64,000 nt of DNA from Alphaproteobacteria bacterium GM7ARS4 (GTDB lineage: Bacteria; Pseudomonadota; Alphaproteobacteria; GM7ARS4), in NCBI GenBank assembly GCA_014332745.1, contig JACONL010000003.1, forward strand, positions 38,207 to 102,206, in the 5' to 3' direction. The notes under the pieces are model-generated. The model was not told where the DNA came from, searched no databases, and was given only the letters and a program-made list of their open reading frames with translations. A program made the translations under genes and the position numbers. Below are positions 1 to 16,004 of the stretch, piece by piece (the stretch's first letter is position 1; each line of letters starts with the position of its first letter).

Positions 1-3000
1 GTCCATGCCACATCTGTTGAGTCGAAAAATGACAATGTATCGTCAAGGGACGCCATGCCATCGCCAAAGGCGGTATGGAGATGCAAGCGGCCAAGGGCAT
101 CGAACAGCATGGTACCATCTTTGTCAGCGATTCGTTGATAATGGGAAGAACAGAGTCCGCCGCCTATAATGATACGAAGACCTTCGATGTTACAGAAGGC
201 GCTTCCTAAGACTCTTTCACCGATAGCCTCAGAGAGCTTTTGCTGGCCATCGTCATTGTTCTCTTGTGGCGCTGGTGGGCCACGTCCGCTACTATCTCTA
301 TCTCGCGGCGGCGTTGGATTGAGCATAGCGCATGCGACATGGGTTGAGCGGTCATTGCCGATAATAGTGCCTGATGCCGGCATCTGCCCACTAAAGAGGG
401 GCATACGTGTAAAGGGGCGTGATGCGCATGCTAAATCCAGCAATCCATGCCCATGCCGACGCATGGCGTAGTCGTTCCTGCGGTCGCCATCGAGATCAAA
501 GCGTTTGTCGGCCGTGAGGAGAATGCGTTCCACCAATTCGCGAGACTCTATTTGCACGCTTTCGGCGTTAAAGGCATCTTGTAGAATGGCAATGCCTCCC
601 GCCACCAACGCGGCGGCGGCATTGGCGGAGACAATGCTTTCACTGGAGAGACGATGTTCATAGCCTTGTGCGCCTTTCACGCGGTAGCGGTAGCGTCCGG
701 GGGCGGCGATACAGAATCCCTTTGCCACCGTGCCACAAGACGTCTGTCCGTCCTCTACGGCCACGACAGTGAGTGAGAGTGGGCGTATGGCCTCAGAGAA
801 GGCGGGAAGCCCTGCCATCAGCCCCACATCACTGGGCGCGCTTCCTCCTACCAATTGGTGAGGGTCTGATGCGGCGAAGACATAAATATCGTGTGTCGTG
901 GCGCGCCGGGCGCCAGCATGCGCATCATCTGTCAATCCCGCCTCTAATGCCTCGAGGATGTTATGCCTCCCGTGTCCATAGAGGGCATGCACAGCGTCCA
1001 AGCCTTCGTCTTCATCGCGCATAAACAAAGCGTGGTAATGGGCAAGATTGTTTTGCCTCTCATGGCGTATTGTATTCTCTAGGAGGACAATGTTGCGGGT
1101 CAGGTCTGGGAGACGTCTTGCGGTATCGATGCCTCGCGCCCGATAGATAAGGTCTATGGCATTAAAGGCGTCATTCCCTATGCGCGGTGTGGACAAGAAA
1201 CGCATCGATGCGCTCGGGGCGACGCCATGGATATTTGCTGCCAGCCTGTCATTGTCAGTGCTTCGGTGGGGGTCCATCAAGCCATTGACAAGGGCCAGCA
1301 TGCCCATATGTTGAGGCGTTGCCGCCTTGAGTGTTTGTGGTGCCAGCAATGCTGTGCTATCCCCTCTGTCATTCTGTCCTTGTAGGCTTGTGTCCGTATT
1401 CGTGACGATTTGGTAGGACTCGATATTGCCTTGTCCTTGTCCGTAGACTCTTCCTATGACATGGTAGGAAGAGGCGTCATCACCATGGGTGAGAAAAATA
1501 CGTCCTTGTGCCCGATATTCCCTTTGTCCTATGGTGGTGATATCCATCACCTCTCTTAGGATATTGAGGGATATATCGGACGTGTCACTGCCACTGAGAC
1601 GTTGGTAAAAGGCATCGAGAAAGGCTTGTCGCCTACGTCCAGCCACAGAAGCCACGTCGCCGCCAAGGAGGTCTTGCCTTGCCAATTGGTCTAGGGGCAT
1701 GGATGTGTCCTCTGTGCCGTCTGTATGGCGGAGGGCGAGGTTTATGGGGAGAGAGAAAAATCCTTGCGAGATAGCATCGGTGATGAATCCATCGTTATAA
1801 AAGACGACATGGTCCATGTGGTCGCCTGCGAACATGGTCTCTAGCAATTGAGACGCTGTTCTCTCTTGGTCGAGACGCACCATAAAGCGCGCTAATGTCT
1901 GGTAATCATCGGTATGGGCGCTACTGAATTCGGGGTGGGTCGGGTCAAAGAGATGGTTGCTGATAACGCTGATAGAGGCGCCTTTTCCTGTGTTGAATTG
2001 GAGCGCATCAATGGTCTCGCCAGTGACGCGGTCTGGATGGGCGCGCACATAGGCTTGGGCAACGCCAATTCTGGCGAAAGAGGGTGTATTTTGGTATTCC
2101 ACGCGCAATTTTTCTTGTAGACTGCTTGTTGCTGTCGTCATGCCTGTGGCGCCTGTGAAAAATTCTGTCCTTGTGGTGTCTTCGCTTGAAGACAACGTTC
2201 CTTGTGCCGATGACGTGCGTGTGACGGGAAGACAACGGCGCTCTCCTCCCTCATCATCATAGGTCAGCCCTGCCTCAAGGCATTGCTGTCTCGTTATGCA
2301 TTGTCCATGGGCGCGCTCACCGATGTTTTGGCCGCTACGATTGAGGGTTATCTCATCCCCCAGAGAGGTGCAGTCGCGCGCTGTGCCGCTTATGCCTCCT
2401 AACACACAGACGTCGCCAAAGGCTTTTCCCCTCGGTGCTGTCGATGCGATACCGTTATCTTGGAAACAGACGTCTCTATCGATGCATTGATATGTGGATG
2501 CCGTATTGAGGGCAATTTTTCCCGCTCCACAGGCGCTCGTGCTGTCGTTCTCGTCACTGACGATACAACGGGGCATATCACCTGTCTCATAGACTCGCGC
2601 CACACCATCAGAGGCGCAATGGCGCGCATCAGGCGTGAGACATCGGTTATTGGCGACAATCTCCCTATCACCACATGCGAGCACACAGGAAGAGCCTTGG
2701 CTGTCGAGCAATTGTCCTCCATCGTCATGACACGCCGCTGCGCGCTCATCGACAGTGTTTTCCTCATGCAAGACACATGCGCCAGCGACAACGGCGCGCC
2801 GTGACGTGGGAACGAGGCAATCAGCAATGGAGATACAATTGCCATGTGGGCGCGCGCCAATGGCTGAGCCTGTGGCGTTATAGACATACAAGCCCACCCC
2901 ATCACGTCTGTCCCTCGTTCCCGCGCATGTTGTGGCAGAGGCAGACACGCACCCTCTGTTCTCGACGCCATGGCCCGCGTCGACACAACGCTCGATAGGC

Positions 3001-4664
3001 ACACACACATTGTCATGTGTCCCTAAAATCCCACTACGGATATACCCAGCGGCACACGCCATGGCATCGGCAACACAGCGGGCATGGCCAATGCGCTCTT
3101 CAAACACTTGTCCGCCCCGATAGGCGCAGCTCGATGGTGACGCATCAGAACATCGCAAGAGCCTCCCATCATCGAGACTCAAGGGAGAAATCCCCTCACC
3201 AACGGCACAAGAAGCAACGCAACCATCGCCAGCTCTGTTCAAAAAATAATTGTCAGGGCATGCCGCAAGACGCGCTGCCGTCGATGTGTGTTGAGTCATA
3301 TGGAGACAACGGGCATCCTCAATGATAAAACCCGCCATGGTCTCACATGACAGACGTGTTTGGCAGCGGGACGCGCTATGGTCTAAGAGGCGCTTTAGCA
3401 TGCCACATTGCTGTTCCGTAGGCGCGTCAGAACATAGCCTCCTATCGGCATCATAGCCTTGAGCAACGGGACAGAGGAAGGCACTGACACAGCGATTATC
3501 GATGAGGGCATCGCCCATAGAGCATGCGCTGGCGAGACGTCTCTCTTCACATGCCGTCCCGCGCACCAAGAAGCCCGCCATGTCCGTGCATGCTGTTTGT
3601 GTGATACATTGTGGCATAGCGCTTTCCTCAAAACCCACCACATAGTCGGCATTGGTGCATGCAGAGCTCAGCACGCATTGCCCATCATCCCTATCGCCGA
3701 GACGCTCGCCAGTGCCATTATAAATTCCTCCCGTGCCAACGCATGATGTGGGCGATGCGGAGACACATTGACGCGATGCACGATCTACACCACGTCCCGC
3801 TATGGTGCGACAGGATTCTTGAGGCAAGCACACATGGGCAAGGTCGGCAAAATCGCCAACGCCAAGTCCCGTGCCACGAACAGAAGAGGGAGGGCACTGG
3901 TCAATGGTCGCCACACACCGCCCGCCTTCCCCTTGTCGGTCTAGGAGGCGCATGATAGATGCACATTGGCGCGCTGTGGGTGTTGAGACGCATGTTTTTG
4001 TGGCCTCATCATAGCCATAGGGATTGGGGCAATGTGTGGCGGCGTCTCGGCATTGCCCATCAAAGACAGCCTCGCTATCCCCGCATGCGGTAGCAGTGGC
4101 GACACATGATGTCCCGTTTTTATGGAGAATGCGTCCAATGGTGGTGCATTGTGTGGCGGTTGTGGGTGTTGAGACGCATGTTTTCGTGGCCTCATCATAG
4201 CCATAGGGGTTAGGGCAATGTGTAGCGGCGTCTCGGCATTGCCCGTCAAAGACAGCCTCGCCATGTCCACACTGAGTCCCGTGGGCGACACATGCTGTGC
4301 CTAGGTGATTGAGAATCCTGTGGATGGCGACACATTCATCAGTCGTCGGGCTTGCGGTGCAAAGCCGTGTTTCTTGCTGATACCCTTGGGCGGCGGGGCA
4401 GCGCGTTGCCTCTTGACATCGTCCTTCCATGAAGGCGTCGCCTTCCGCGCATGGGACATCGTTGCCTATCTCAACCTGTTCGCCCATATGCATCATCATC
4501 ATGCTGACATTGTCGGAGCATGCCACACAGAGCAGGAGGGGCATATAAAGAGACAAGCGCGTCAGCCTCTGGTGTCTTCTGGGGGCGGCTGTTCTTGTGG
4601 ATTTTTTCGTGAGTCTTGCTATGGTGAGGCGGTGGACATGGGGAAGAAAAAGACGTTGCAACAT
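1..4664 (-). CDS. Very large secreted cysteine-rich repeat protein with a C-terminal subtilase (peptidase S8)-like domain; the 3' end runs off the left edge (possible autotransporter passenger)
   Basis: Absent from the ORF track because no stop codon lies in the window. Hand translation of the minus frame (codon first bases = 2 mod 3) is open from ATG 4664 (alternative ATG 4544) down to position 1, and no other ORF in that frame is listed in 1-4600. The N-terminus is a basic stretch followed by LSLYMPLLLCVAC, which is signal/lipobox-like. About 2230-4500 holds ~18 four-Cys modules, e.g. GQCRDAATHCPNPYGYDEATKTCVSTPTTATQC. About 330-2000 holds S8-like blocks: TGKGASISVISNHLFDPTHPEF, FCIAAPG, SANAAAALVAGGIAIL, GHGLLDLACA. 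Confidence 0.65.
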   Translation of the reverse strand, partial: MLQRLFLPHVHRLTIARLTKKSTRTAAPRRHQRLTRLSLYMPLLLCVACSDNVSMMMMHMGEQVEIGNDVPCAEGDAFMEGRCQEATRCPAAQGYQQETRLCTASPTTDECVAIHRILNHLGTACVAHGTQCGHGEAVFDGQCRDAATHCPNPYGYDEATKTCVSTPTTATQCTTIGRILHKNGTSCVATATACGDSEAVFDGQCRDAATHCPNPYGYDEATKTCVSTPTARQCASIMRLLDRQGEGGRCVATIDQCPPSSVRGTGLGVGDFADLAHVCLPQESCRTIAGRGVDRASRQCVSASPTSCVGTGGIYNGTGERLGDRDDGQCVLSSACTNADYVVGFEESAMPQCITQTACTDMAGFLVRGTACEERRLASACSMGDALIDNRCVSAFLCPVAQGYDADRRLCSDAPTEQQCGMLKRLLDHSASRCQTRLSCETMAGFIIEDARCLHMTQHTSTAARLAACPDNYFLNRAGDGCVASCAVGEGISPLSLDDGRLLRCSDASPSSCAYRGGQVFEERIGHARCVADAMACAAGYIRSGILGTHDNVCVPIERCVDAGHGVENRGCVSASATTCAGTRDRRDGVGLYVYNATGSAIGARPHGNCISIADCLVPTSRRAVVAGACVLHEENTVDERAAACHDDGGQLLDSQGSSCVLACGDREIVANNRCLTPDARHCASDGVARVYETGDMPRCIVSDENDSTSACGAGKIALNTASTYQCIDRDVCFQDNGIASTAPRGKAFGDVCVLGGISGTARDCTSLGDEITLNRSGQNIGERAHGQCITRQQCLEAGLTYDDEGGERRCLPVTRTSSAQGTLSSSEDTTRTEFFTGATGMTTATSSLQEKLRVEYQNTPSFARIGVAQAYVRAHPDRVTGETIDALQFNTGKGASISVISNHLFDPTHPEFSSAHTDDYQTLARFMVRLDQERTASQLLETMFAGDHMDHVVFYNDGFITDAISQGFFSLPINLALRHTDGTEDTSMPLDQLARQDLLGGDVASVAGRRRQAFLDAFYQRLSGSDTSDISLNILREVMDITTIGQREYRAQGRIFLTHGDDASSYHVIGRVYGQGQGNIESYQIVTNTDTSLQGQNDRGDSTALLAPQTLKAATPQHMGMLALVNGLMDPHRSTDNDRLAANIHGVAPSASMRFLSTPRIGNDAFNAIDLIYRARGIDTARRLPDLTRNIVLLENTIRHERQNNLAHYHALFMRDEDEGLDAVHALYGHGRHNILEALEAGLTDDAHAGARRATTHDIYVFAASDPHQLVGGSAPSDVGLMAGLPAFSEAIRPLSLTVVAVEDGQTSCGTVAKGFCIAAPGRYRYRVKGAQGYEHRLSSESIVSANAAAALVAGGIAILQDAFNAESVQIESRELVERILLTADKRFDLDGDRRNDYAMRRHGHGLLDLACASRPFTRMPLFSGQMPASGTIIGNDRSTHVACAMLNPTPPRDRDSSGRGPPAPQENNDDGQQKLSEAIGERVLGSAFCNIEGLRIIIGGGLCSSHYQRIADKDGTMLFDALGRLHLHTAFGDGMASLDDTLSFFDSTDVAW
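3975..4259 (-). repeat. In-frame 186-bp tandem duplication inside the Cys-rich gene
   Basis: Near-identical ~99-bp cores at 3975-4073 and 4161-4259, offset by 186 nt. Both encode EAVFDGQCRDAATHCPNPYGYDEATKTCVSTPT. The out-of-frame track ORF 3941..4291 shows the same duplication (ARLSLTGNAETP / ARLSLMGNAETP). Confidence 0.85.
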
Positions 4665-4711
4665 GGTCGTAATTCTATAGTCTGTTCGTCTGAGATAGAG
4701 GCGTCGATAAA

Positions 4712-4792
<81 letters not shown>

Positions 4793-4795
4793 CTG

Positions 4796-4882
4796 GGAGA
4801 GGTGGCAGAGTGGTCGAATGCGCTGGTCTCGAAAACCGGTATGGGGGCAACCCCATCGAGGGTTCGAATCCCTCCCTCTCCG
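4796..4882 (+). tRNA. tRNA-Ser (anticodon CGA), long variable arm, CCA not encoded
   Basis: Acceptor ggagagg/cctctcc, anticodon stem ctggt/accgg with loop ctCGAaa, variable arm tatgggggcaaccccatc, T arm gaggg-ttcgaat-ccctc, discriminator g. Confidence 0.85.
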
Positions 4883-5013
4883 CACGAGACACACGCATGA
4901 TGCATGCGCCCCCTCCGCACCCATTTAGTGACGACTGCACCCCCTGTATGTCATAAAAAGACGAAGCGCGATGTTCTCGCTTGTCCTATCCCTCGTGCCA
5001 AGGGCGACACTGA

Positions 5014-7170
5014 CTACATGAGGTGATGTAGGCGGTATTTTTCTAGGTAAGGCTTCAGAGTGAAATAGGTCTCGCTATAATTCTCTGAGAGCTTGGCGAA
5101 TTCAGCGATTCGCCTTAGTTCTGCCTCTGCCAATTTTTTTCCATCACGGGAGGCATACCCGTCTCTTTCCTTCAGCATGACGCAAAAGTCATAGATGATG
5201 GCCTTTTCCTTATGCGGGCTTTTCCTGAGGATTCGTCCCCGTCTTTGGATGAATTGGCGGGAATTTCTCGTACTGGCGAGAATAAACGCTGTCTTACATG
5301 CGGGGATATCGACACCTTCATCTAAACATTTCATGGCCACCAAGGCATGGATGTCGCCATCCTTAAAATCATCCAAAATGCCCTCCCTTTCCTTTTTGTT
5401 TTGCGCCGCCGTGAATTGACTGGTTCGCCATCCATGCCTATGCGCTATCTTCTGTATGGCGCTAATGTGCTTGACATCGTCCTGTCCATCGTCCGCGCTC
5501 TCACCTTCTAACGTCCCTTCAGCACAATAAAACAGGGTGTATTTGATAGGTTTTTTTATGTCCCTGAGTATGTCTGCTAGTTTTGTTCTTTTGCTTTCTG
5601 CTCCATTGACGACCTGTGTTCGTTTCCTCAACAGCGTGTTGAGACGCATACGGGCCTGTTGACTGTTCCCCGTATCACCTGAATTTTCGAGGATGGCGTA
5701 TAGACGGGCTATCTCTTTTGAGAGGGTTATATAGTCCTCTGTTTCGGCATGGTTGAGTTCTGTGAGCATAGGATAATAGTCATAGGGCGTGAGCACGCCA
5801 TCATCGAGGGCATCTTTCAGGGAATATGTGGAGACGACTTTGCCATAATAGCGGTTGATACGATGGGCGCTTTCGTCCTCCTCATCTTGTTCCTCTCTCC
5901 GTGTCCCAGGGGTGGCGGACAATCCCATGCGAAATCGCGCCTTGGCGGGCAGAGATTGCGCTGTTCTGTCAGCGCCATGGTGATGGCACTCATCGCCAAT
6001 GAACAAGAAGGGGATGTTCTCCTTGAGCCTCTGTAGCTGGCCTAGAAATGTGCCCTTTGGCGATGTCAATGTGGCATTGACGACGATGGCAACACAGAGG
6101 TCAATATGACCCCGATGGAGGGCTGATATGTTCCTGTCTAACCTGTCGCGCCATGTCTTTTCACCGCCATAGCACATGATGGGATGGAGCTTGAAGAGCC
6201 GCATATTCTCTGCCCATTGCTCGGCAAGGTTCTGGTAAGGGACGGACACAACCACGAACAAACGTTTTTTCTCTTCATAGAGTTCTACAGCGCCATAAAT
6301 TGCGGTGATGGTTTTGCCAGAGCCTGTGGCATGCTCAAAGATCCCATGGTCATTGTTTCTTTTCCATGATTCCAAAGCGTCCCTTTGGTGCGGTCTTAGT
6401 TGGATACCCCCACGTCTCTTTTCTTGGTCTTGCGGGGGAGGGGGGGACTCGCCTGTATCATACCATGCCTGCCATAGAGCGATTTCGTCCTGTATGCTCG
6501 GGCGGTGAATGGATGATTGTGACAGCACGTTTTGCGCTATGGATGAAAAATCGATGACATGCGTGTCTTTCGCTCGGTTGTGCCATAGGTCATCGAAACT
6601 GGTGATATGTGGTTCATAGTGGTCTTTAAATTCATGACGCCAGCCCTTAAACACATTGATTGTTTCATAGTTGAACGGGAGTAAAGCACTGAGGGTTTCA
6701 TTGGCAGAGCCCTGAAAGACGATAAAATCGTCATGTGTATCCCTAAAGATACCAATTTTCTGGTGGTGTATGCCATGTCGTCTCAGGGCGATCTTGACAT
6801 CGAGGGCGCGTTCCCGCACCATCCATGTCAGCACATTGAGCTGATGTTTAAAGAGGTCTGAGTCGTCGCTTTGAACGATACGGCGAAAATCATGCTCTAG
6901 CCTCTCTTTGATGGGACGTACGTCATATCCCTTTTTGATGGCTTGGTATTCCTCCTCGCTGAGGGTGGCGCCACAGACAAGGCGCATGTACCCTCCGTTT
7001 TCGATAAAGACGGCAAGGCCACTGGCGGCGCTCGTCAGCATCTTGGCATCGAAATACCCAACGGCGCGGTCATAAGACACGGCATGGGAGAGGATGGGGA
7101 TGTAAAAGTCGGTGAGGATATTATCCTGTTCCGAATTATAGACGGCCTTGAGGGTGACGTCTCTCAGCAT
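5014..7170 (-). CDS. HKD (phospholipase-D family) nuclease domain fused to an SF2 ResIII/DEAH-type helicase; last gene of the candidate defence operon
   Basis: 718 aa. The N-terminal ~200 aa carry a single HKD motif, H136-Q-K138-IGIFR-D144 followed by GSAN (154-157), at nt 6700-6765. Helicase motifs are I HATGSGKT (K286), II DECH (393-396), III SATP and VI QRRGR (642-646). The ATG at 7170 lies 1 nt after the stop of the upstream gene. Confidence 0.85.
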   Translation of the reverse strand: MLRDVTLKAVYNSEQDNILTDFYIPILSHAVSYDRAVGYFDAKMLTSAASGLAVFIENGGYMRLVCGATLSEEEYQAIKKGYDVRPIKERLEHDFRRIVQSDDSDLFKHQLNVLTWMVRERALDVKIALRRHGIHHQKIGIFRDTHDDFIVFQGSANETLSALLPFNYETINVFKGWRHEFKDHYEPHITSFDDLWHNRAKDTHVIDFSSIAQNVLSQSSIHRPSIQDEIALWQAWYDTGESPPPPQDQEKRRGGIQLRPHQRDALESWKRNNDHGIFEHATGSGKTITAIYGAVELYEEKKRLFVVVSVPYQNLAEQWAENMRLFKLHPIMCYGGEKTWRDRLDRNISALHRGHIDLCVAIVVNATLTSPKGTFLGQLQRLKENIPFLFIGDECHHHGADRTAQSLPAKARFRMGLSATPGTRREEQDEEDESAHRINRYYGKVVSTYSLKDALDDGVLTPYDYYPMLTELNHAETEDYITLSKEIARLYAILENSGDTGNSQQARMRLNTLLRKRTQVVNGAESKRTKLADILRDIKKPIKYTLFYCAEGTLEGESADDGQDDVKHISAIQKIAHRHGWRTSQFTAAQNKKEREGILDDFKDGDIHALVAMKCLDEGVDIPACKTAFILASTRNSRQFIQRRGRILRKSPHKEKAIIYDFCVMLKERDGYASRDGKKLAEAELRRIAEFAKLSENYSETYFTLKPYLEKYRLHHLM

Positions 7171-7171
7171 C

Positions 7172-7714
7172 TTACGACTCTGCTGGTTTGTCGTCTGTGG
7201 ACTCTGTGGGTTTATCGTCTGTGTCCGTGGCGGGTTCTTCTTGCTTGGACGTCTCAGACAGATACCCGTCTTCTTTCAATCCTTTGATGATGGCGTGGGC
7301 AAGGGTGTCTCCATACCCTTTTTTCACCCATGTCGCTAAAATGTTGAGCCCTCGATGGGCATACTCCTCAAAAATTTGCTCCATACCTTTGTTCCTCTCC
7401 TGAGAGGCTTTCCCCTCGTCTGACGTGTCGTCGAGAATGGAGATGTCTTGCGTATCAGCCAGAGCAGTGATGAAGATGTAGTCATGGAGATCATCAGCGG
7501 CAAAATCATACCACTGTATTCTATCCTTTCCAGAGGAGTCGGCAGGCAGGGAGTCTGGTGGTACGCCGTCCTGATAGCCGAGGAGGGCGGCATAGCAGAG
7601 CAGCTCTCTATATGACTGGAAAATGGCGACCTTGCTTCCTCCTTGCTTCCTCGTCAATCCCTGCATGAGGGGTAGGTGTTTTTTATCAAAGTATATTGGA
7701 CGCATGACGGGCAC
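7172..7714 (-). CDS. Small protein of unknown function with an acidic tandem-repeat C-terminal tail; third gene of the candidate defence operon
   Basis: 180 aa. The core (FQSYRELLCYAALLGYQDG ... IFEEYAHRGLNIL) recalls, from memory only, small proteins annotated as Dnd system-associated. The tail is ATDTDDKPTESTDDKPAES. The gap to the upstream ATPase stop is 5 nt. Confidence 0.6.
   Translation of the reverse strand: MPVMRPIYFDKKHLPLMQGLTRKQGGSKVAIFQSYRELLCYAALLGYQDGVPPDSLPADSSGKDRIQWYDFAADDLHDYIFITALADTQDISILDDTSDEGKASQERNKGMEQIFEEYAHRGLNILATWVKKGYGDTLAHAIIKGLKEDGYLSETSKQEEPATDTDDKPTESTDDKPAES
7176..7223 (-). repeat. 24-bp tandem repeat (2 copies) encoding the acidic tail TDDKP(T/A)ES
   Basis: gactctgctggtttgtcgtctgtg (7176-7199) and gactctgtgggtttatcgtctgtg (7200-7223), 21/24 identical. 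Confidence 0.85.
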
Positions 7715-7719
7715 TCTCT

Positions 7720-9750
7720 TTATCTGATTTTCTCAATGCGTGTCATGTTTCTTTCGCAACCATAAAGGGTTGTTTTAATGCGCTTGCCATCTGGCAATAT
7801 AAGGATGTCATCGGGCTTATCGCCCTGTTCTCCTTTATTTTCAACAATGAGCGCATATTGAGCACCGATTCTTCCCTTGAGCGCGCCTAACACGTCCTCG
7901 TCGCCTTGGGAGCTAGAGACGAGGATGACGACCTGTTGGGCCATCTGAGGCAAAAATGTCGCCGTTGCCTTACGATAAGAAGGGTCGAGATTCCCAAAAG
8001 GCGAATCCAGGAAAAGGGGCGCCACCGTGCCGGGCTTGAGGAATGTGTCTGTATTGTCATGCCTATCCGCCGAGAATTTGACGAGGGCCGCCATGAATGC
8101 CAAACTGAGGAGTTGCTTCTCACCGCCACTCTTGCCGACTGGCGCGCCTGTGTCTTTTCTAAACATGCTCAATCTAAAGGACTCGTCTAGAGACGCCTCG
8201 TATTCTCGCCGCGCCGTCTCGTCAAGGATGGCATTGATGTCTTGGATGATGGTGTGACGTGATTCCTCACGATATGTCGTGAGTTCTGTGTTGAGGCGGG
8301 CGCATGCCGCCTCAATGAGGGCGACCCATGCGCATGCCATCACATACGCCCGGTCGTCCCTGCCTTTCCCCTTCTTTTTCGCCAGACTCTGGTTCGCGAA
8401 GGCTATATCCTTTTCAACATCGGCGCATTTCTGTTCCAACCTCCCAAGTTGTTTAAAGGTGCTTTTGATCCTGTCCTTGGTCTTCCGCAATTCATCTTCT
8501 TTTTTGGTAATCTCTTTATGACTCAAACCCCTTATCTTTTTGCCACATGCTTTAATTCCTCTTTCTATCTCGTCGATATCGCTGTCTAATAAGATCATTG
8601 CACCCGCTATCTTGTCATACGCAGATTGCGCTGACGAGCGTTTTTCTTTGAGCTCACCTGATCGCAGCTTTATTCGAAGCCAGCGGTCATTCATGGTTTT
8701 TGTCGCAGCATTCACGAGCAGTTCTCGAATTGCTTTCTCTTCATCTGAACCAGGCTCGAAGGGCCTGCCACAGATGCATACGCCCCGTTTAAGAATCTCT
8801 TTGACAAAAAATTCTGCAATGTCGCTCGGTAATTTCCCGTCGTCCTCGGCTTTCTTAGTGACTGTCTCGCACTCTTCCATAGCCCGTTGCGACAGCAAGG
8901 CAATGCTATAATCACTAATCCATGCAATTTCCTCACGCTCCTTGTGTGACCGTTCTTTTTTCTTGTCTTTCAGGTCCTTCTCAAGACGTTCTCTCTTTTC
9001 TTGGATGACTCTTACTTTATCGATGTCTTTCAGCTCCTGTTCGATGCTTTTTTGCTTATCTTCTTCAACCTTTAACTGTCCTTTCAAGCCAGCGATCTCT
9101 TCTGAAAGTTTCTTCCTCTGTTCCTTTAGGTCATTAATTTTTTTCTGGTCCTTTTTCGTTTTATCATCGTTCGCGTTGATTTCCGCAATCTCTCGCTCTT
9201 TCGTTTCAGCGATAGCCTTGAGGTTATCCTTGGCATGGTTGGCTTTATGACAGCCGAGCATGTGCTCGATGGCTTTCTTGACATGTTCTGTATTATCTTG
9301 ACTAGAGAAATATTCAGCATGTTCGCCATCAAAAAAGAAGTGGTTAGCCATCTCATCTGGTATGACAGCGTCAACGAGTGGCTGGGGGTACGGCATAACG
9401 TTACCATTGCCATCAGCAATGTCCCACGCCTTTAGCGTCATCTCCCCGCTATGGTCTATACGCCTCTTTACATCATAGTCCTTGTCTTTATGCTCAAAAG
9501 ACACGGTGACGGACGCATGCTCCGCCCCTTCCTCTCTCGCTTGGTCACAGATAATTCTCTCTTTGAATTCAGTGCGTGCCGTCATGCGCCCATGGAAGCA
9601 CCAGAGTAGGGCATTGAGCAGGGCGGTCTTGCCAACGCCATTCTCGGCATGAATGAGGGTGACATTCCTCTCCTCATCTGTGGACAGGGTGAACTCCTGT
9701 TCCCCGTAGAATTGCCTGAAGTTTTCTAAAGAAATGGTCTCTAACCGCAT
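7720..9750 (-). CDS. DndD/SMC/Rad50-like ABC ATPase with long coiled coils and a central CxC hook; second gene of the candidate defence operon
   Basis: 676 aa. The N-terminus is MRLETISLENFRQFYG, with Walker A ENGVGKT (K41, nt 9628-9630). Lys/Glu-rich coiled coils span about aa 170-300 and 395-460. KRGVCICGRPF (C325/C327, nt 8770-8778) sits between the arms. ABC signature SGGEKQ is at 541-546 and Walker B/D-loop PLFLDSPFGNLD at 578-589. Confidence 0.85.
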   Translation of the reverse strand: MRLETISLENFRQFYGEQEFTLSTDEERNVTLIHAENGVGKTALLNALLWCFHGRMTARTEFKERIICDQAREEGAEHASVTVSFEHKDKDYDVKRRIDHSGEMTLKAWDIADGNGNVMPYPQPLVDAVIPDEMANHFFFDGEHAEYFSSQDNTEHVKKAIEHMLGCHKANHAKDNLKAIAETKEREIAEINANDDKTKKDQKKINDLKEQRKKLSEEIAGLKGQLKVEEDKQKSIEQELKDIDKVRVIQEKRERLEKDLKDKKKERSHKEREEIAWISDYSIALLSQRAMEECETVTKKAEDDGKLPSDIAEFFVKEILKRGVCICGRPFEPGSDEEKAIRELLVNAATKTMNDRWLRIKLRSGELKEKRSSAQSAYDKIAGAMILLDSDIDEIERGIKACGKKIRGLSHKEITKKEDELRKTKDRIKSTFKQLGRLEQKCADVEKDIAFANQSLAKKKGKGRDDRAYVMACAWVALIEAACARLNTELTTYREESRHTIIQDINAILDETARREYEASLDESFRLSMFRKDTGAPVGKSGGEKQLLSLAFMAALVKFSADRHDNTDTFLKPGTVAPLFLDSPFGNLDPSYRKATATFLPQMAQQVVILVSSSQGDEDVLGALKGRIGAQYALIVENKGEQGDKPDDILILPDGKRIKTTLYGCERNMTRIEKIR

Positions 9751-9759
9751 GGTATAATC

Positions 9760-9984
9760 CTATTTGGACATCTCCTTATATGCCTGTGACACCACGAATT
9801 CGATCCGTTTTCTTATCTCCCTTAGTCTCACTGAGTCGCCAGTTCCGGGCTCATACGGCTCGTCCTCCAGCTTCATTATATGGGTCAGGAGGATTTCAAC
9901 CCACCCCTTACTTGTGACGCGTTCTATAAGGGCATTGAGCATGGAATTCTCGGGGTCTTGTGGCAAAGGTAAATCTTGTGACAT
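9760..9984 (-). CDS. Small hypothetical protein; first gene of the candidate defence operon
   Basis: 74 aa with no recognisable motif. GGGAGA Shine-Dalgarno about 7 nt upstream of the ATG at 9984. Its stop is 9 nt before the ATPase ATG. Confidence 0.5.
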   Translation of the reverse strand: MSQDLPLPQDPENSMLNALIERVTSKGWVEILLTHIMKLEDEPYEPGTGDSVRLREIRKRIEFVVSQAYKEMSK

Positions 9985-10060
9985 GGGCGCTCTCCCGTCT
10001 CTTGATGGTTGGCATGGCTGAGGCGCAATGCTCGCAAGGCACTCAACCTATGATAGCACA

Positions 10061-10089
10061 AGTGTAAAGAGGGGGTGACGTTGATTCAA
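10061..10089 (-). promoter_or_regulatory. Candidate sigma70-type promoter for the four-gene operon
   Basis: The minus strand reads TTGAAT (10089-10084), a 17-nt spacer, then TACACT (10066-10061). This lies about 75 nt upstream of ATG 9984. Confidence 0.4.
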
Positions 10090-10100
10090 CCATTTTTTCA

Positions 10101-10125
10101 TTGACCCTTTTGACCTTTTTGACCC
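10101..10125. repeat. Three direct TTGACC(C/T) repeats with 9-bp periodicity
   Basis: ttgaccc (10101), ttgacc (10110) and ttgaccc (10119) separated by T-runs. They lie between the candidate operon promoter and tRNA-Leu. Confidence 0.8.
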
Positions 10126-10207
10126 ATGAGCCCGCCTATTTTGATTTTGCTAAAATGCTGTCATGGCATTAGGATGGGGACACAAAGAGAGGGCGGGGCG
10201 TTATCAT

Positions 10208-10294
10208 GCCTCCGTGGCGGAATTGGTAGACGCGACGGACTCAAAATCCGTTTCTCGCAAGAGAGTGCCCGTTCGAGTCGGGCCGGAGGTACCA
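10208..10294 (+). tRNA. tRNA-Leu (anticodon CAA), CCA encoded
   Basis: Acceptor gcctccg/cggaggt (G1-U72 wobble), D arm gcgg-aattggtaga-cgcg region, anticodon loop ctCAAaa, long variable arm, T arm gcccg-ttcgagt-cgggc, then a-cca. Confidence 0.8.
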
Positions 10295-10371
10295 AACATC
10301 ATGCGCGCCACTTAGGCACACGCCAACCATAGAGACACCAACCAAAAATAGATAAGATACACAACATATAT

Positions 10372-11382
10372 ATGTCGTCCTTCCTTTCTCTCGTCATCGT
10401 CCAAGGGCTGTTCTTTGTCTATATGCTCAAGGGGGGTATACGCTTAGGCTATGCCTTGCTTCTACCCTTTACGAACATACACCTTGACCCTATTTATCCC
10501 GCCAGCACCAGCCTCTTCGAACAGCATAAAAAGGCCGATGAATTATGGCTTGTGCTTGCCTTTTTTGCTCTTCTCACCCTCAGTGACGCATGGCGTGGGC
10601 TTATGCCAATCCTCCAAGCTCCCCTCTTGTCGCTCCTCTTGTTTTTCTGTCTTCACTACGCCTTGTTATTGTTGGAAAGACAACAGAGAAAAACGACCCG
10701 TTTCCCCGTCATCGCCTGTTGTCTCGCCGCCAATGCCCTCGTCATCACATCCCTGCTGACATACATTGTCATCGTCGTGGCGGGATTAGAACGGGTGACA
10801 GATATTCCCGCCCATATCCTTGTCCTTGTGGCGCTTTTTCTCACGACACCATCCTTATGTATCATGCTCGCTGTCCAGAGATTGCCAAAATCGCCCTTCG
10901 TGGATCGCCTCTCCCTCGGCATTGTCTTGTTTCTCTGTATGCTCCTGCCTGTTATCAGCTTGCTCCCCATACAAAGCGCCGACACATTGTGGCATCAATT
11001 GCCTCTGGCTGTGCCTCTCGCCCTTATCCCTTTTTTCTTGTGCGTGAATGCTGTCGCCCTTGTGGCAAGCATCAAGGCAAGGCTCGCCCATCCACCCTAT
11101 CCGACTCTGTGCGCCCCTCCTTTCCTCGCCTATAGTTTCTCGCTTCTCACCTTTATCGGTCTCGGTATCACGCTACAAACACCCCATCATCACGCCATCG
11201 ACCAAGCCTCTCTTACGCCATCCTCAACCATATCCTTATGGGCGCTGCTGTTTATTATTGCCTCTGTCATCGTCCTCTTATGGTGGGAAGAGACATCGAG
11301 ACGCATGCGCCTCCTGCGCGTCTTCCACAGACTAGGCCTCACATCGCCCTTCCGCTTCCTATGGAAAGAAGGGAAGAGATAA
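10372..11382 (+). CDS. Polytopic integral membrane protein, function unknown
   Basis: 336 aa with about 9-10 hydrophobic segments and no recognisable motif. The 3' end overlaps the convergent gltS by 24 nt. Confidence 0.5.
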   Translation: MSSFLSLVIVQGLFFVYMLKGGIRLGYALLLPFTNIHLDPIYPASTSLFEQHKKADELWLVLAFFALLTLSDAWRGLMPILQAPLLSLLLFFCLHYALLLLERQQRKTTRFPVIACCLAANALVITSLLTYIVIVVAGLERVTDIPAHILVLVALFLTTPSLCIMLAVQRLPKSPFVDRLSLGIVLFLCMLLPVISLLPIQSADTLWHQLPLAVPLALIPFFLCVNAVALVASIKARLAHPPYPTLCAPPFLAYSFSLLTFIGLGITLQTPHHHAIDQASLTPSSTISLWALLFIIASVIVLLWWEETSRRMRLLRVFHRLGLTSPFRFLWKEGKR

Positions 11383-12636
11383 AAAGGACTGAATGACAGC
11401 GACATTAAGAATGTCGATAAAGAACGCGCCTACAAGAGGCACGATGAGAAAGGCTTGTTGAGACGCCCCGTAACGCTCGCTGAGCGCGCCCATGTTAGAG
11501 ACGGCTGTGGGCGTCGCCCCTAAACCAAAGCCACAATGACCGCCAGCGACAACAGCCGCATCATAATGCGTCGCCATCACCCGCCCCATGACACGATAGG
11601 TGATGACCTGAGCATAGACCGCCATCATGACGACTTGTCCCGCTAAAATAACGAGCATGGGAAGGGCGAGATGCACCAATTCGCCTACATTTAGCGCCAT
11701 AATGGCAGACGCCAGAAAAAGACCCAGAGAAACACGCGCAATAATATCGAGAATAGGAAGCTCAAGCACAGGGATATGGGCAATATCACAGCTGTTACGA
11801 ATGATAATGCCCGCCATAATGACCCACACAAACGTTGGAATTGTCAGCGTGCTGTCCGTCCCCTCCATCCACGTATCCATCCACCCCGCAAAGAGAACAC
11901 AGAGCAAAATAACAAACATATGCACTAAAAACCCTTGAATGCCCGGACTCGGCATCATCTCTCTGCTCGTAAAGAACATGGATGTCACGGACTGAGGTGA
12001 GTCGCGTGTGTCGCCTGTCTTCTCGGTCGTAGGCTTTAACCCGTGACGTTGGATGAGGCGTTGTGCCACAGGACCACCCAGCAAGCCTCCCGCCACCAAA
12101 CCAAAGGTTGCCGCCGCTAGTGAGATTTCTTTTGCCCCTTGCAAACCATATGTCTCCTCGAAAAGCGCGCTCCACGCTAATCCCGTCCCATGACCTCCAG
12201 AGAGTGTCACCGAGCCACCAATGAGACCAACGGCTGGATGGACGTCCATGAGCCATGCGAGGACAATACCCACGCTATTTTGCATCACTAAAAGCCCCGT
12301 GGCGATGAGGAGAAAAAGAGGAATATGCGAACCGCCTTGAAGTAAGAGCTTATAACTTGCGCCTAAACCCACTGTAGCGAAAAAACTCAGCATCAAGACA
12401 TCCTTGACGGATTCATCAAATGTTATCACCATGAGGCCCGACTGCACGAACGCACTCACCAAGAGAGATGCCATAAGACCGCCAGCAATGGCCGCGGGAA
12501 TGTTGTTCTCCCTCAGCCAAGGTATGCGCGCGACCAAAACCCTCCCCAAGAATAAAACGGGGAAAGCGAGCGTCAAAGTCTCTATAAAGGTGAATGCCAT
12601 AGACAAAGAGTGTAGAGGGGGAGCGTACAGGGTCAA
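11359..12636 (-). CDS. gltS: Sodium/glutamate symporter (GltS family)
   Basis: 425 aa. The polytopic profile and N-terminal region (LTLAFPVLFLGRVLVARIPWLRENNIPAAIAGGL) are typical of GltS. The true start may be the internal MAFTF. Confidence 0.7.
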   Translation of the reverse strand: MTLYAPPLHSLSMAFTFIETLTLAFPVLFLGRVLVARIPWLRENNIPAAIAGGLMASLLVSAFVQSGLMVITFDESVKDVLMLSFFATVGLGASYKLLLQGGSHIPLFLLIATGLLVMQNSVGIVLAWLMDVHPAVGLIGGSVTLSGGHGTGLAWSALFEETYGLQGAKEISLAAATFGLVAGGLLGGPVAQRLIQRHGLKPTTEKTGDTRDSPQSVTSMFFTSREMMPSPGIQGFLVHMFVILLCVLFAGWMDTWMEGTDSTLTIPTFVWVIMAGIIIRNSCDIAHIPVLELPILDIIARVSLGLFLASAIMALNVGELVHLALPMLVILAGQVVMMAVYAQVITYRVMGRVMATHYDAAVVAGGHCGFGLGATPTAVSNMGALSERYGASQQAFLIVPLVGAFFIDILNVAVIQSFLSLPFFP

Positions 12637-12684
12637 GAGAACATCTAACCTATATAATCGTTTCCTTGAAGAGGCAAGGATATC

Positions 12685-13968
12685 ATGGAAGAAAGCACGT
12701 CAACGGTCAAGACAACACGCCCCCATACAGGCGCATTGTCTGGTATGACCGTCCTTGACATGACACGCGTCCTCGCAGGACCTACATGCACGCAGATTCT
12801 TGGCGACCTTGGCGCTGACATTCTGAAAATAGAACGTCCCATCCATGGCGATGATTCTCGCGCCATGGGACCGCCCTATGCTGATGCCCATGCCGACAAT
12901 CCCCAAGAGAGCGCCTATTTTATCAGCGTCAATCGCAATAAACGTTCCCTTGCGCTCAATCTTACCCAACCCCAAGGACAGGCGATCGCCCGCCAACTCA
13001 TGGCGAAAAGCGATATTGTTGTCGAAAATTTCCGAAAAGGAGTCACCGAACGCTGGCAACTGGATTATAGCACGGCATGCCGTCATCACCCCCATATCAT
13101 CTATTGTTCGCTCAGTGGCTTTGGACGCACAGGACCCTATGCAGACCGAGGTGGCTATGATTTCCTCATACAAGCAATGGGAGGACTCATGAGTATCACT
13201 GGCGACGTCCATGGAACACCCATGAAAGCCAGCGGCGGACTCATCGATGTGCTCACAGGACTCTACGCATCGACAGCGATCCTTGCGGCTCTTCACCACC
13301 GCCAACGCACAGGACAAGGGCAACATATCGATATGGCGCTCTTTGATACCCAAATAGCCTATCTAGGATATATCGCCCAATCCTATCTCATGTCGAAGGA
13401 GATGCCACAACGCTACGGCAATAGCCATCCCACCATTGTGCCATACCAACTCTTTCACGCTCAAGACGAACCCATCATCCTTGCCATCGGTAGCGACCTC
13501 CAATTCCAGCGATTCTGTCATTATGCGCAATGTGACGCCCTCGCCCAAGACAAGCGATTCGCAACGAATGCAACGCGTGTCCAACATAGGCAAGAATTGA
13601 TAGGACAGCTCCAACATATCATAAAACAGCACAACGCCCAGTATTGGTGTGAAGGGCTCACACAATGCCACGTCCCATGCTCACATATACGGGCTATTCC
13701 CGATGTCCTCAAAGACCCGCAGGCACAGGCGCGCCATATGGTGCGCCATATGCCTTATCAACCATCGGGACATGCCAAACAAGAGACCTTGCCCTTTATC
13801 GCCTCGCCCATGACAATGGAGAAAACACCCATCCAATATCGACATCCTCCGCCCCGTTGTGGCGAACAGAGCAACGCCATCCTCAAAGAGTATCTTGGCA
13901 TGACGGATAAGGACATCACGCGCCTCATAGAGGACGGGATCGTCTCCTCGCCTTCACAGAAGAGATAA
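12685..13968 (+). CDS. CoA-transferase family III (CaiB/BaiF-type) protein
   Basis: 427 aa with the family-typical N-terminus LSGMTVLDMTRVLAGPTCTQILGDLGADILKIERP..GDDSR. Confidence 0.8.
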   Translation: MEESTSTVKTTRPHTGALSGMTVLDMTRVLAGPTCTQILGDLGADILKIERPIHGDDSRAMGPPYADAHADNPQESAYFISVNRNKRSLALNLTQPQGQAIARQLMAKSDIVVENFRKGVTERWQLDYSTACRHHPHIIYCSLSGFGRTGPYADRGGYDFLIQAMGGLMSITGDVHGTPMKASGGLIDVLTGLYASTAILAALHHRQRTGQGQHIDMALFDTQIAYLGYIAQSYLMSKEMPQRYGNSHPTIVPYQLFHAQDEPIILAIGSDLQFQRFCHYAQCDALAQDKRFATNATRVQHRQELIGQLQHIIKQHNAQYWCEGLTQCHVPCSHIRAIPDVLKDPQAQARHMVRHMPYQPSGHAKQETLPFIASPMTMEKTPIQYRHPPPRCGEQSNAILKEYLGMTDKDITRLIEDGIVSSPSQKR

Positions 13969-14002
13969 AGACAACGATAGGAACGATTTTTCCAAATTTC
14001 TG

Positions 14003-14031
14003 TTGACAGCCTCTCTCTTAAACTCTATCTA
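14003..14031 (+). promoter_or_regulatory. Near-consensus sigma70 promoter with no downstream protein gene
   Basis: TTGACA (14003-14008), a 17-nt spacer, then TATCTA (14026-14031). Confidence 0.5.
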
Positions 14032-14037
14032 TAGGAC

Positions 14038-14144
14038 ACACGGGGATGTTGCCGTCCGCAGTCGTGTGGCGCATCATGTGTTCCCCGTCATTATGCTCTC
14101 CGGGCCCACCCTGCCCCCCCCAGGGTCCGGGGGGCACTTTTTTT
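14038..14144 (+). ncRNA. Candidate small RNA (~105 nt), unclassified
   Basis: Bounded by the promoter above and an intrinsic terminator (C8/G6 stem plus T7). There is an internal hairpin acgggga...tccccgt. It lies between convergent genes, the CoA-transferase and dapD. Confidence 0.4.
14114..14144 (+). terminator. Rho-independent terminator
   Basis: A C-run (14114-14121) pairs with a G-run (14129-14134) around the loop agggtcc, followed by cac and TTTTTTT (14138-14144). Confidence 0.6.
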
Positions 14145-14166
14145 AAAGGCAAGGGCGGGAGGGGCT

Positions 14167-15093
14167 TTACGACTCTCGTAACAAGGCATTGAGGGATGTT
14201 TTGCGTCGAGTCTGCGCATCTACCTTCTTGACGATCACAGCCACATTGAGAGAGGGCAAACGCACATCGTCTGTGGAGGCGTGTGGCGCTGGCAAACTGC
14301 CCGGAACGATCACCGAATAGGGAGGCACTTCGCCATAGGTGATGTCGCCTGTTGCCCTATCGACAATCTTCGTCGATGCGCCCAGATAGACACCCATGGC
14401 AAGAACACTTCCCTGCCCCACACGGACGCCTTCCGCTATCTCACAGCGCGCACCAATAAAACAATCATCTTCGATAATAACGGGAGTCGCCTGTAAAGGC
14501 TCTAACACGCCACCAATCCCTGCCCCCCCTGATATATGGCAATTATTGCCAATGTGCGCACAAGAGCCCACTGTCGCCCATGTGTCCACCATCGTTCCCG
14601 TTCCCACATAGGCGCCGATATTGATAAAACATGGCATAAGAACAGCCTGACGCCCGATATAGGCGCCACGGCGAATGATAGAGCCCGGCACAGCGCGAAA
14701 TCCATGACGTCTCCATGTCGCCTCGTCCCAGCCACTTGTCTTGAGAGGCACTTTGTCGAACCACTGCCCTGCCACGCCACCGCCTCGAAGGTCATGGCCA
14801 AAGGACAGAACACGGCTCTCTTCTATGGTGAAAGAGAGGAGAATGGCTTTTTTCACCCATTGATGAACGCGCCAACCACCTTCCTCATGGGTTGCCACCC
14901 TGAGAACGCCTTCATCGAGGAGGTCAATGGTCTGACGCACCGCATCGACGGCGTCCTTGTCCAGCGAGGAAGAGGCATGGTCATAGGCGCGCTCTACCCG
15001 TCGTTGTATATCCCTATAGCGCTCACTCTTATGATGACTTGTGGCTGTCATGCTCCTGTCGTCATGGTATCGCTCGCCCCTTAGGGTGAGCAT
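14167..15093 (-). CDS. dapD: 2,3,4,5-tetrahydropyridine-2,6-dicarboxylate N-succinyltransferase
   Basis: 308 aa with hexapeptide-repeat left-handed beta-helix sequence ([59 protein letters not shown]). The start is probably an internal Met. Confidence 0.85.
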
Positions 15094-15995
15094 GGCGTGT
15101 GTTTGATAATGGTGCCCGCCCCATGTTCTGTGAAAATCTCCAATAAGAGGGCATGAGGCTTACGCCCATCCAAGATGACGGCAGCCTCTACCCCTTGTTC
15201 TACCGCACGGAGACACGTGTCGACTTTGGGAATCATCCCGCCATGGATTGTGCCATCTCGCATATAGGTTCGCGCCTGTTCGATATCGAGCGTTGGCATG
15301 ATCGCCCCTCCTTTATCCTTGATTCCTTGCACATCTGTCAACAGCATAAAACGTTTTGCCCTCAAAGCAACGGCAATGGCGCCAGCCGCCGTGTCAGCAT
15401 TGATATTATACGTAAGGCCATCATCGCCCGATGCAACGGGAGCAATGACGGGAATGACACCTTGTCCCCCCAATATCGTTAAAATATCAGGGTTGACATC
15501 GTGAGGCTCGCCCACAAAACCTAAATCCAAGACGTTCTCAATATGCGATTCATGGTCGCGCTTTTTATGTGTCACCTTTTTTGCTGTCATCAATCGCCCA
15601 TCTTTGCCAGATATGCCTATGACGTTCCCCCCCGCATGGTGAATGAGAGAAACAATCTCTTTGTTGATAGTACCCGCTAAAACCATCTCGACAATGAGCG
15701 CTGTCTCCTTGTCCGTGATACGCAAGCCATCGATGAACGCGCTCTTGATTTTGAGACGCTCTAACATCGCACCGATCTGCGGCCCGCCCCCATGCACGAT
15801 GAAAGGACAAATACCGATATGTTGGAGCAAAATAATGTCTGTGGCGAATGTATCCATGAGGTTCTTGTCGCCCATGACAGCACCCCCCAATTTGATGACA
15901 AAGTTCTTCCCTCGATGTAGACGCATGTAGGGAAGGGCTTTGGCAAGGATACGCGCCTCTTCATGGGGCGATACGGCTGACGGAGACGCTGGCAT
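15081..15995 (-). CDS. argB: Acetylglutamate kinase
   Basis: 304 aa with [23 protein letters not shown] and [11 protein letters not shown], typical of ArgB. Confidence 0.9.
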
Positions 15996-16004
15996 TGGCA
16001 GACC

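Follow-up and report, generated by a model that had tools for sequence, protein, structure and literature searches.

What does a bacterium make of an open frame that fills the left 4.6 kb of a contig stretch, is crowded with cysteines and ends in a part that only distantly recalls a subtilase? The question arises in Alphaproteobacteria bacterium GM7ARS4 (GenBank assembly GCA_014332745.1, contig JACONL010000003.1, forward-strand positions 38,207 to 102,206), a 64,000-nt stretch to which we refer as the window, and in which one giant gene runs off the left edge. As judged by profile comparison, the C-terminal domain of its product is a real subtilase (peptidase S8) homologue even though it scores under the Pfam threshold, and it is a predicted pseudo-protease whose altered active site has been conserved, not decayed. 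For the protein as a whole we favor a reading that we hold to be fairly probable, namely that a lipidated autotransporter of the NalP/SphB1 kind has become a non-catalytic, disulfide-stapled surface binding protein of a sponge-associated Gram-negative bacterium.

The frame itself is on firm ground. On the minus strand it is stop-free from window position 4985 to position 3 (1,661 codons) and exits at the left window edge, as the original prediction had seen for the left 4.6 kb; the more than 70 cysteines that it had counted are also there, at 72 in 1,554 aa. The gene was missing from the list of open reading frames (ORFs), as had been pointed out, because this list omits ORFs that run off an end. 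The 107 most upstream codons of the open frame overlap two tRNA genes that are transcribed away from the giant gene, and the coding sequence (CDS) should therefore start at 4664 or below. The start candidates are ATG 4664, TTG 4556 (with AGAGG nine nt upstream) and ATG 4544; the 150-bp divergent region upstream showed no sigma-70-like promoter on its minus strand. The coordinates of all parts given here were checked by translation.

3..4664, minus strand: CDS, 1,554 aa from ATG 4664, 3′ end outside the window
4712-4789, plus strand: tRNA-Pro(GGG)
4796-4883, plus strand: tRNA-Ser(CGA)

The subtilase-like domain and its active-site positions

Evidence for subtilase homology had to come from relatives of the protein. 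Pfam PF00082 reaches 12.1 bits (E 0.12) when the whole protein is scanned and 14.9 bits when only the domain is, both under the cut-off of 21.8, and matches only 2 of 11 family copies at E<=1. NCBIfam, PDB sequences and a word-indexed protein search returned nothing for the domain; a word-indexed homologue search with the whole protein found no match, and PDB sequence searches with the single C-terminal sequence and with the family profile gave nothing significant. An exhaustive HMMER search, with the last 743 aa as query and 1.84 billion cluster representatives as database, matched 65 proteins. The strong matches (E 1e-273 to 1e-30) have this domain too, at ~595 aa and often in several copies, and those of the weak tail, at E down to 7e-14, proved to be true Peptidase_S8 in 20 of the 20 checked (five by Pfam at E 1e-30 to 1e-60, P0087 and P0088 by precomputed Pfam annotation, and most others by a seed hidden Markov model, HMM). 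On the window, this seed HMM, for which four true S8 enzymes served as input, reaches 67.9 bits. When 21 family copies were compared with 15 true S8 domains by hhalign, the probability was 99.7% and the E 5e-26 over domain residues 326-598. Because the hhalign, seed-HMM and HMMER matches agree, the domain is best taken as a true S8 homologue, which bears out the subtilase-like C-terminal part that had been proposed by eye. Its features, with the linker that leads into it, are as follows.

2115..2231, minus strand: Ser/Thr-rich linker, residues 812-850, read from the sequence
411..2114, minus strand: pseudo-subtilase (S8-like) domain of ~570 aa, residues 851-1418, by profile comparison
1923..1988, minus strand: Asp-motif equivalent GKGASISVISNHLFDPTHPEFS, with Ser902 (1959-1961) at the catalytic Asp position
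1335..1922, minus strand: ~196-aa insert, residues 915-1110, between the Asp motif and the His-motif helix
1308..1310, minus strand: His1119 in QHMGMLALVNG, at the catalytic His position by motif order
864..866, minus strand: Asp1267 in VFAASD, in place of the oxyanion-hole Asn (true S8: AAGN)
696..737, minus strand: CGTVAKGFCIAAPG, a Cys pair and APG motif common to the nearest true S8 (CGiAa.fCIAAPG)
594..632, minus strand: Ser-motif equivalent VSANAAAALVAGG, with Asn1348 (621-623) at the nucleophile position

All five S8 landmarks named in the original prediction are present. Profile comparison puts VISNH, FCIAAPG, SANAAAALVAGG and GHGLLDLACA on the matching S8 motifs, while QHMGML is assigned to the His motif by motif order and spacing only. 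The ~196-aa insert is without equivalent in ordinary S8 domains and has no Pfam match.

At the nucleophile, hhalign sets Asn1348 opposite the Ser of GTSfAAP, and the residue is Asn in 21 of 21 family copies; the serine that had been called ambiguous or lost is lost. The oxyanion position is likewise uniform, being Asp in 21 of 21 copies. Replacement of the catalytic Asp also stands, as the column holds Ser in the giant protein, Thr in most other copies and Met otherwise. Here local hhalign pairs GKGASISVISNHLFDPTHPEFS with GGGVIIGFID-SGINKQHEAFA at an E of 7e-4 and a probability of 27%, and the assignment of the strand is backed by its motif context, G.G..I.VI...FD..HPEF. A global hhalign alignment laid the S8 Asp strand on HVGRVYG..GNI.SYQ with zero confidence, and the local match, ISVISN...FDPTHPEF, was preferred to it. 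The His that was thought to be kept is indeed found in this protein, but its column is E, Q, D, V, S or R in other family copies, and it falls outside the significant alignment block, which begins at HGVAP (1215-1229), so that the alignment there is without statistical support. An intact D-H-S triad, by which this would be an ordinary protease, is not seen, with Asn1348 in place of the Ser and Ser902 in place of the Asp.

True S8 relatives, by comparison, retain D[ST]G, HGT, [AS]GN and GTSxAAP. With the nucleophile Ser changed to Asn, the oxyanion Asn to Asp and the catalytic Asp to Ser, the domain would have no serine-protease function, and ~60 positions are nonetheless invariant across domain copies of 35-40% identity. 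One possible explanation for the strict conservation of the altered residues (both Asn and Asp are invariant) is a non-canonical enzyme that uses either Glu/His with Asp as in sedolisins or an Asn-based reaction. Sedolisins combine Glu/His with Asp in their chemistry, and in many family copies Glu does occupy the His position while the oxyanion position is Asp. Such an enzyme is very unlikely here, since a nucleophilic Ser or Thr is not conserved at or beside the nucleophile position, the His column is highly variable (E/Q/D/V/S/R/H) and Thr, Ser or Met is found at the Asp position; the lack of a conserved nucleophile across the 21 copies led us to reject a sedolisin-like active site. We therefore keep to a conserved pseudo-protease.

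The cysteine array

The 72 Cys are distributed very unevenly, with 2 in the signal region, 64 in residues 72-811 and 6 in the last 743 residues. The array that they form is a separate module; the idea that it is built on the subtilase scaffold did not hold.

2232..4451, minus strand: Cys-rich array, residues 72-811 (740 aa), 64 Cys in 32 two-Cys units
3906..4451, minus strand: three well-kept supermodules, residues 72-253, profile E 1e-21 to 1e-26
3357..3524, minus strand: fourth clear supermodule, residues 381-436, profile E 6e-20
3975..4316, no strand: 186-nt tandem duplication, copies 3975-4130 and 4161-4316, 83% identical

The repeating unit is C-x11-30-C followed by a spacer of 3-15 residues, the first usually V or I, in 32 consecutive copies. 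The original prediction of ~18 four-Cys modules of 35-45 aa was approximately right; more precisely, the unit has two Cys. Units are best kept in a 62-aa, six-Cys A-B-C supermodule, in which A reads CGxxEAxxDGxC, B reads CPxxxGYDxxTxxC and C reads CxxIxRILxxxGxxC. Four clear supermodules are found in residues 72-130, 132-193, 194-253 and 381-436 (module profile E 1e-20 to 1e-26), and the units outside them are degenerate. Relatives carry 7-50 copies. CxxC pairs do not occur in the array.

No Pfam, NCBIfam or PDB sequence match was obtained for the array: three Cys arrays scanned against Pfam, with E allowed up to 10, gave no credible match, and a PDB sequence search with the Cys-module profile gave nothing significant. 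The regular Cys spacing and the CP..GY motif presumably recall the 'CPxGxY...C' hairpins of furin-like, TNFR-type and ephrin-receptor-like repeats, a resemblance that we take as a lead only. These are disulfide-stapled rod repeats of eukaryotes, and at E up to 10 none of their Pfam models matches the array.

How many supermodules the gene truly holds depends on the 186-nt pair at 3975-4316, the sole recent duplication visible at the DNA level in the array. A JGI contig is 100% identical to window 4096-17170 and ends at 4096, inside the repeat; both this contig and the Logan unitig graph break within 3975-4316. Summed unitig depth over 3976-4261 reaches 25-150 in the sponge run containing the window, 3-20x the flanking value of 7.5, and the Logan graph over this interval falls apart into many variant unitigs of 54-66 nt. 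The 186-nt array is probably collapsed in the assembly or common to paralogues or strains. The real gene may have more supermodules than were assembled, or paralogues may share the module.

The same tangle in the assemblies, with contigs breaking at the repeat, could point to a decaying pseudogene or an assembly chimera without function, as could the many database relatives that are fragments or split ORFs. We find this scarcely credible, as a stop-free frame of 4.98 kb is impossible by chance, the ~60 invariant positions of the S8-like domain are kept between distant copies, the architecture is colinear with that in independent metagenome-assembled genomes (MAGs), and Logan contigs cover most of the region with <=2 mismatches per contig outside the repeat.

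Putative lipoprotein signal, C-terminal module and proposed role

The two ends of the chain bear on how the protein would be exported and anchored. The parts concerned are listed here.

4518..4556, minus strand: hydrophobic segment and lipobox-like motif LSLYMPLLLCVAC, then SDN, read from the sequence
204..410, minus strand: Pro/acidic low-complexity linker, residues 1419-1487, read from the sequence, with equivalents in relatives
3..203, minus strand: start (67 aa) of a ~455-aa C-terminal module, with its invariant Cys pair CNIEGLRIIIGGGLC

The signal region reads ...RRHQRLTRLSLYMPLLLCVAC and then SDN, with a basic stretch, a hydrophobic stretch and a lipobox-like VAC in that order, and its proposed lipidation site is Cys49 (4518-4520). 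With a start at ATG 4664, a 36-residue basic extension (4557-4664) precedes the hydrophobic segment. Measured against [LVI][ASTVI][GAS]C, Ala at -1 and Val at -2 of LSLYMPLLLCVAC fit. In relatives the lipoboxes at this position are canonical and are followed by Ser or Asn (..GGVSSC/SSG in P0001, ..FVASC/SS in P0002 and P0007, ..LLGC/NSG in P0005), and true S8 relatives begin with ..ASCGGG lipoboxes. The N-terminus resembles these lipoprotein signals and may be of the signal type that had been suggested for it. A twin-arginine (Tat) signal at PRRHQRL was rejected as a poor match to the S/T-RRxFLK consensus.

At the other end, the 67-residue tail in the window reads SAFCNIEGLRIIIGGGLCSS...FFDSTDVAW; it keeps all 15 invariant module columns (alignment A3), and the HMM of the C-terminal module scores 94 bits on the window. 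Six full-length relatives have this module at ~455 aa, beginning CNIEGLRIILSGDLCS and ending ...FGIMSFRREF, ...MMSLNLSF, ...FLSLKRVF or ...GILSFQQTF, all in Phe. Its last 180-260 aa are common to true S8 lipoproteins, which end ...WRxxF/W. AlphaFold was run on P0070, a 357-aa relative, with a 13-sequence alignment; the model has a mean predicted local distance difference test score (pLDDT) of 54 and a predicted template modelling score of 0.55, and from residue 118 onward, at pLDDT 60-85, it shows two short helices and then 12 strands. All of the best 50 Foldseek matches of this model in the PDB are outer-membrane beta-barrels (porins, OmpG, AlgE), at E 2e-5 to 3e-4 and TM 0.3-0.5.

How the chain continues past the window is indicated by an ORF on JACONH010000017 of the MAG GM202ARS2, which consists of Cys units, one dead S8 domain, a linker, the module and a terminal Phe. 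It is colinear with window residues 656-1554 at 31% identity (E 4e-93) up to the window edge. Because it goes on for 394 residues past the equivalent of that edge, the complete giant protein is expected to have ~1,950 aa, with ~395 more residues past position 1. Efforts to extend the 3′ end met with no match in a protein-based metagenome scan, and an exact 54-mer from the window start was absent from the genome and metagenome collections; one Logan contig reaches 442 nt past the window. Since the tail aligns with a module that is modelled in relatives as an outer-membrane beta-barrel and ends in an aromatic residue, a barrel past the window edge is expected as had been predicted, and judging from these models the giant protein very probably has one.

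On the reading that we prefer, the giant protein would descend from lipidated subtilisin-type autotransporters of the NalP/SphB1 kind. It would be exported by Sec and then acylated at Cys49, and its C-terminal barrel would insert in the outer membrane, anchor the protein and carry the N-terminal part to the surface. Disulfides between neighbouring Cys may stiffen the Cys units into a stalk that resists proteases, and the dead subtilase domain may keep its substrate-binding cleft and bind without cleaving. The ligand could be a peptide or protein of the sponge host, of the host matrix or of another microbe. A multivalent surface adhesin or receptor fits because the family multiplies both dead domains and Cys supermodules.

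There are known systems with which this proposal can be compared. Lipidated subtilisin autotransporters are established in NalP and SphB1 (PMC9289746), and these proteins of Neisseria meningitidis and Bordetella pertussis have the same layout of lipoprotein signal, S8 domain and C-terminal outer-membrane barrel. The nearest true S8 enzymes match the NCBIfam models of the autotransporter peptidases EprS and fusolisin, which belong, with Ssp, to the group 15 autotransporters. In Ssp, a Cys pair of the C-terminal passenger recalls the invariant junction C-x13-C of the giant protein family (PMC9769942). NalP, SphB1 and group 15 are, however, active enzymes that retain the D-H-S triad, have a translocator of the PF03797 type and contain hardly any Cys, whereas the giant protein has lost the triad, has no detected PF03797, and carries the ~196-aa insert in its S8 domain and the 64-Cys array. 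Precedent for a dead subtilase as a binding protein comes from CspC and CspA of Clostridioides difficile, subtilisin-fold pseudoproteases that serve as non-catalytic receptors or regulators (PMC7200643). They are Gram-positive spore proteins without lipid anchor, barrel or Cys repeats, and have only the S8 superfamily in common with the giant protein.

Several observations weigh against a surface-displayed autotransporter. First, the barrel part of the module lies outside the window, and the full-length modules of relatives match neither PF03797, the autotransporter beta-domain, nor any other Pfam or NCBIfam model; two C-terminal-module profiles found nothing significant among PDB sequences. 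Second, the P0070 model is only moderately confident at its mean pLDDT of 54, and the best 50 Foldseek matches include 0 autotransporter translocators, being all 14-18-stranded porin types. Third, the cleft is not supported by modelling, as AlphaFold on the S8-like domain with an 11-sequence alignment reached a pLDDT of 45 and left its preservation unsupported (the Foldseek matches of this model were meaningless, and it was discarded). At the N-terminus, Cys at lipobox position -3 is atypical and the start codon is ambiguous among the three candidates. No RNA runs hold the region of the giant gene, and the binding or adhesin function, which the protein may have, is purely what we infer. Finally, autotransporter passengers are normally without Cys or have a single Cys pair (PMC9769942), so that 64 Cys would make for an atypical, indeed exceptional, type Va passenger. 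The Cys spacings are short (11-30 within units and 3-15 between them), and small local loops could for this reason pass through the barrel.

The cysteines bear most directly on where the protein resides. It is conceivable, if rather unlikely, that the lipid anchor and barrel sit in the outer membrane while the Cys-rich and dead-S8 parts stay in the periplasm in a structural or tethering role. With 64 Cys, oxidation of the DsbA type in the periplasm is implied, disulfide-bonded folds are poor autotransporter cargo (PMC9769942), and the classical translocator signature was not found in Pfam or NCBIfam searches, the fold matches being to general porin-like barrels. Against a periplasmic location, the nearest true enzymes have the same layout of lipobox and barrel and resemble surface autotransporter peptidases, a length of 2,000-6,000 aa combined with multiplied modules is what surface adhesins typically show, and the short Cys spacing would permit loops small enough to cross the barrel.

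The linker raises a further question, that of release. Subtilisin autotransporters are often freed after temporary lipid anchoring, as are NalP and SphB1 (PMC9289746), and a long Pro/acidic linker stands ahead of the C-terminal module here; the passenger could on this basis be displayed and then freed as a soluble Cys-rich exoprotein or effector that acts on sponge cells. We consider this unlikely, as a dead protease domain implies no self-processing activity, and neither a cleavage motif nor a partner protease was identified.

A retained surface binding protein accordingly remains our choice. In a more specific version, which we advance only tentatively, the family would be a new class of giant, disulfide-stapled surface lipoproteins specific to sponge symbionts, each a subtilase autotransporter turned into a multivalent non-catalytic receptor whose strictly conserved altered site binds a host ligand and whose divergent barrel copes with exporting so Cys-rich a passenger. 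If true, this would widen the pseudoenzyme concept and stretch what type V secretion is known to accept as cargo; it would also supply, for an uncultured lineage of symbionts or parasites with genomes of 1.6-1.8 Mb, a candidate molecule of host recognition. If the autotransporter route holds, the family is a natural test of outer-membrane crossing by a passenger with dozens of disulfide-forming Cys. The family also presents a putative bacterial surface pseudo-protease in which the altered active site is conserved, together with a new Cys-repeat module without sequence match to any solved structure, and makes the giant protein a candidate for studies of host-symbiont recognition in sponges.

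Relatives, habitat and neighbouring loci

The giant protein has the colinear Cys supermodules, the dead S8 domain with Asn/Asp and the CNIEGLR..C junction module that mark its family. From sequence comparison, this appears to be a new and unannotated family, known to date from little more than a small group of sponge symbionts (Alphaproteobacteria). It is invisible to standard annotation, with no Pfam or NCBIfam match and with members labelled 'hypothetical protein'. At 31-41% sequence identity to the giant protein, the relatives have in common with it the dead S8-like domain, a lipobox (lipobox-like in the giant protein), the C-terminal module and the Cys supermodule. Most are larger: the strong relatives have 2,100-5,900 aa and contain 2 to 6 or more dead S8 domains in alternation with Cys arrays, with up to 50 supermodules per protein (50 copies in P0003, 32 in P0001, 26 in P0002 and 21 in P0008). 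Named relatives are MBC6444927.1/GDA50_05755, GDA50_05760 and MBC6444098.1/GDA50_01515 in GM202ARS2 and GDA54_00735 in GM7ARS4, all hypothetical proteins; the others are unnamed ENA metagenome proteins. A domain-profile scan of 185,579 species genomes confirmed GM202ARS2 alone among the matches listed, with at least 4 loci. Within the window, no second member of the family was found.

Two of the incomplete relatives can be followed on their contigs. On JACONH010000012 of GM202ARS2, P0001 (GDA50_05755, 5,935 aa) ends ...DEDGVNDYGTDATKHGG, and the next gene, P0069 (GDA50_05760), begins ...DEDGVNDYGTDATKHGQGLMDLACA; the two appear to be one ~6,400-aa gene split by a frameshift or sequencing error. 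P0019, a relative of GM7ARS4 type, lies at a contig end (L006; ENA scaffold AGAR17-1_SAMN04939365 scaffold_33, 1-3761), and directly before it, on the same strand, stands a 471-aa ORF that probably represents the detached 5′ part of its gene.

All named relatives come from MAGs of Lamellodysidea sponges, and a public 'sponge metagenome' run contains 86% of sampled words of window 1-3000. The GM202ARS2 and GM7ARS4 MAGs define 'Ca. Methylospongiales' from Lamellodysidea herbacea, with genomes of 1.6-1.8 Mb, 52-53% GC (guanine plus cytosine), methylotrophy genes and a type III secretion system (PMC7313196). The window, at 50-56% GC and with ordinary chromosomal genes, is consistent with this group, which is no proof. 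Genomes of this size nevertheless hold several genes of the family, each up to 18 kb, and this large investment for a small genome suggests a central role in life inside the sponge. A dehydrogenase of the pyrroloquinoline quinone (PQQ)-dependent methanol/ethanol family at 50607-52454 (plus strand; 683 bits, above cut-off) fits the reported methylotrophy of 'Ca. Methylospongiales'.

Next to the giant gene, a tRNA-flanked slot holds a three-gene cassette (5014-9750, minus strand) that resembles DNA-phosphorothioation-linked defence, each protein scoring under the curated NCBIfam cut-off; its flanks are the tRNA-Pro/Ser genes at 4712-4883 on one side and a tRNA-Leu on the other. No dndA-E modification genes are visible near the cassette.

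7720-9750, minus strand: DndD-like SMC (structural maintenance of chromosomes) ATPase
7172-7714, minus strand: dnd_assoc_4-like protein
5014-7170, minus strand: dnd_restrict_1-like PLD/helicase protein
10208-10294: tRNA-Leu

Elsewhere in the window, the ORFs at 28365-29768 (plus strand, 467 aa) and 38566-40329 (plus strand, 587 aa) have no NCBIfam match at E<=1e-10. Two adjacent and slightly overlapping ORFs on the plus strand, at 19454-20890 (478 aa) and 20872-22326 (484 aa), encode pentapeptide-repeat proteins that resemble Alr5209/HetL as well as the repeat region of PipB and PipB2, which are type III effectors; the two ORFs deserve attention because related MAGs have a type III secretion system.

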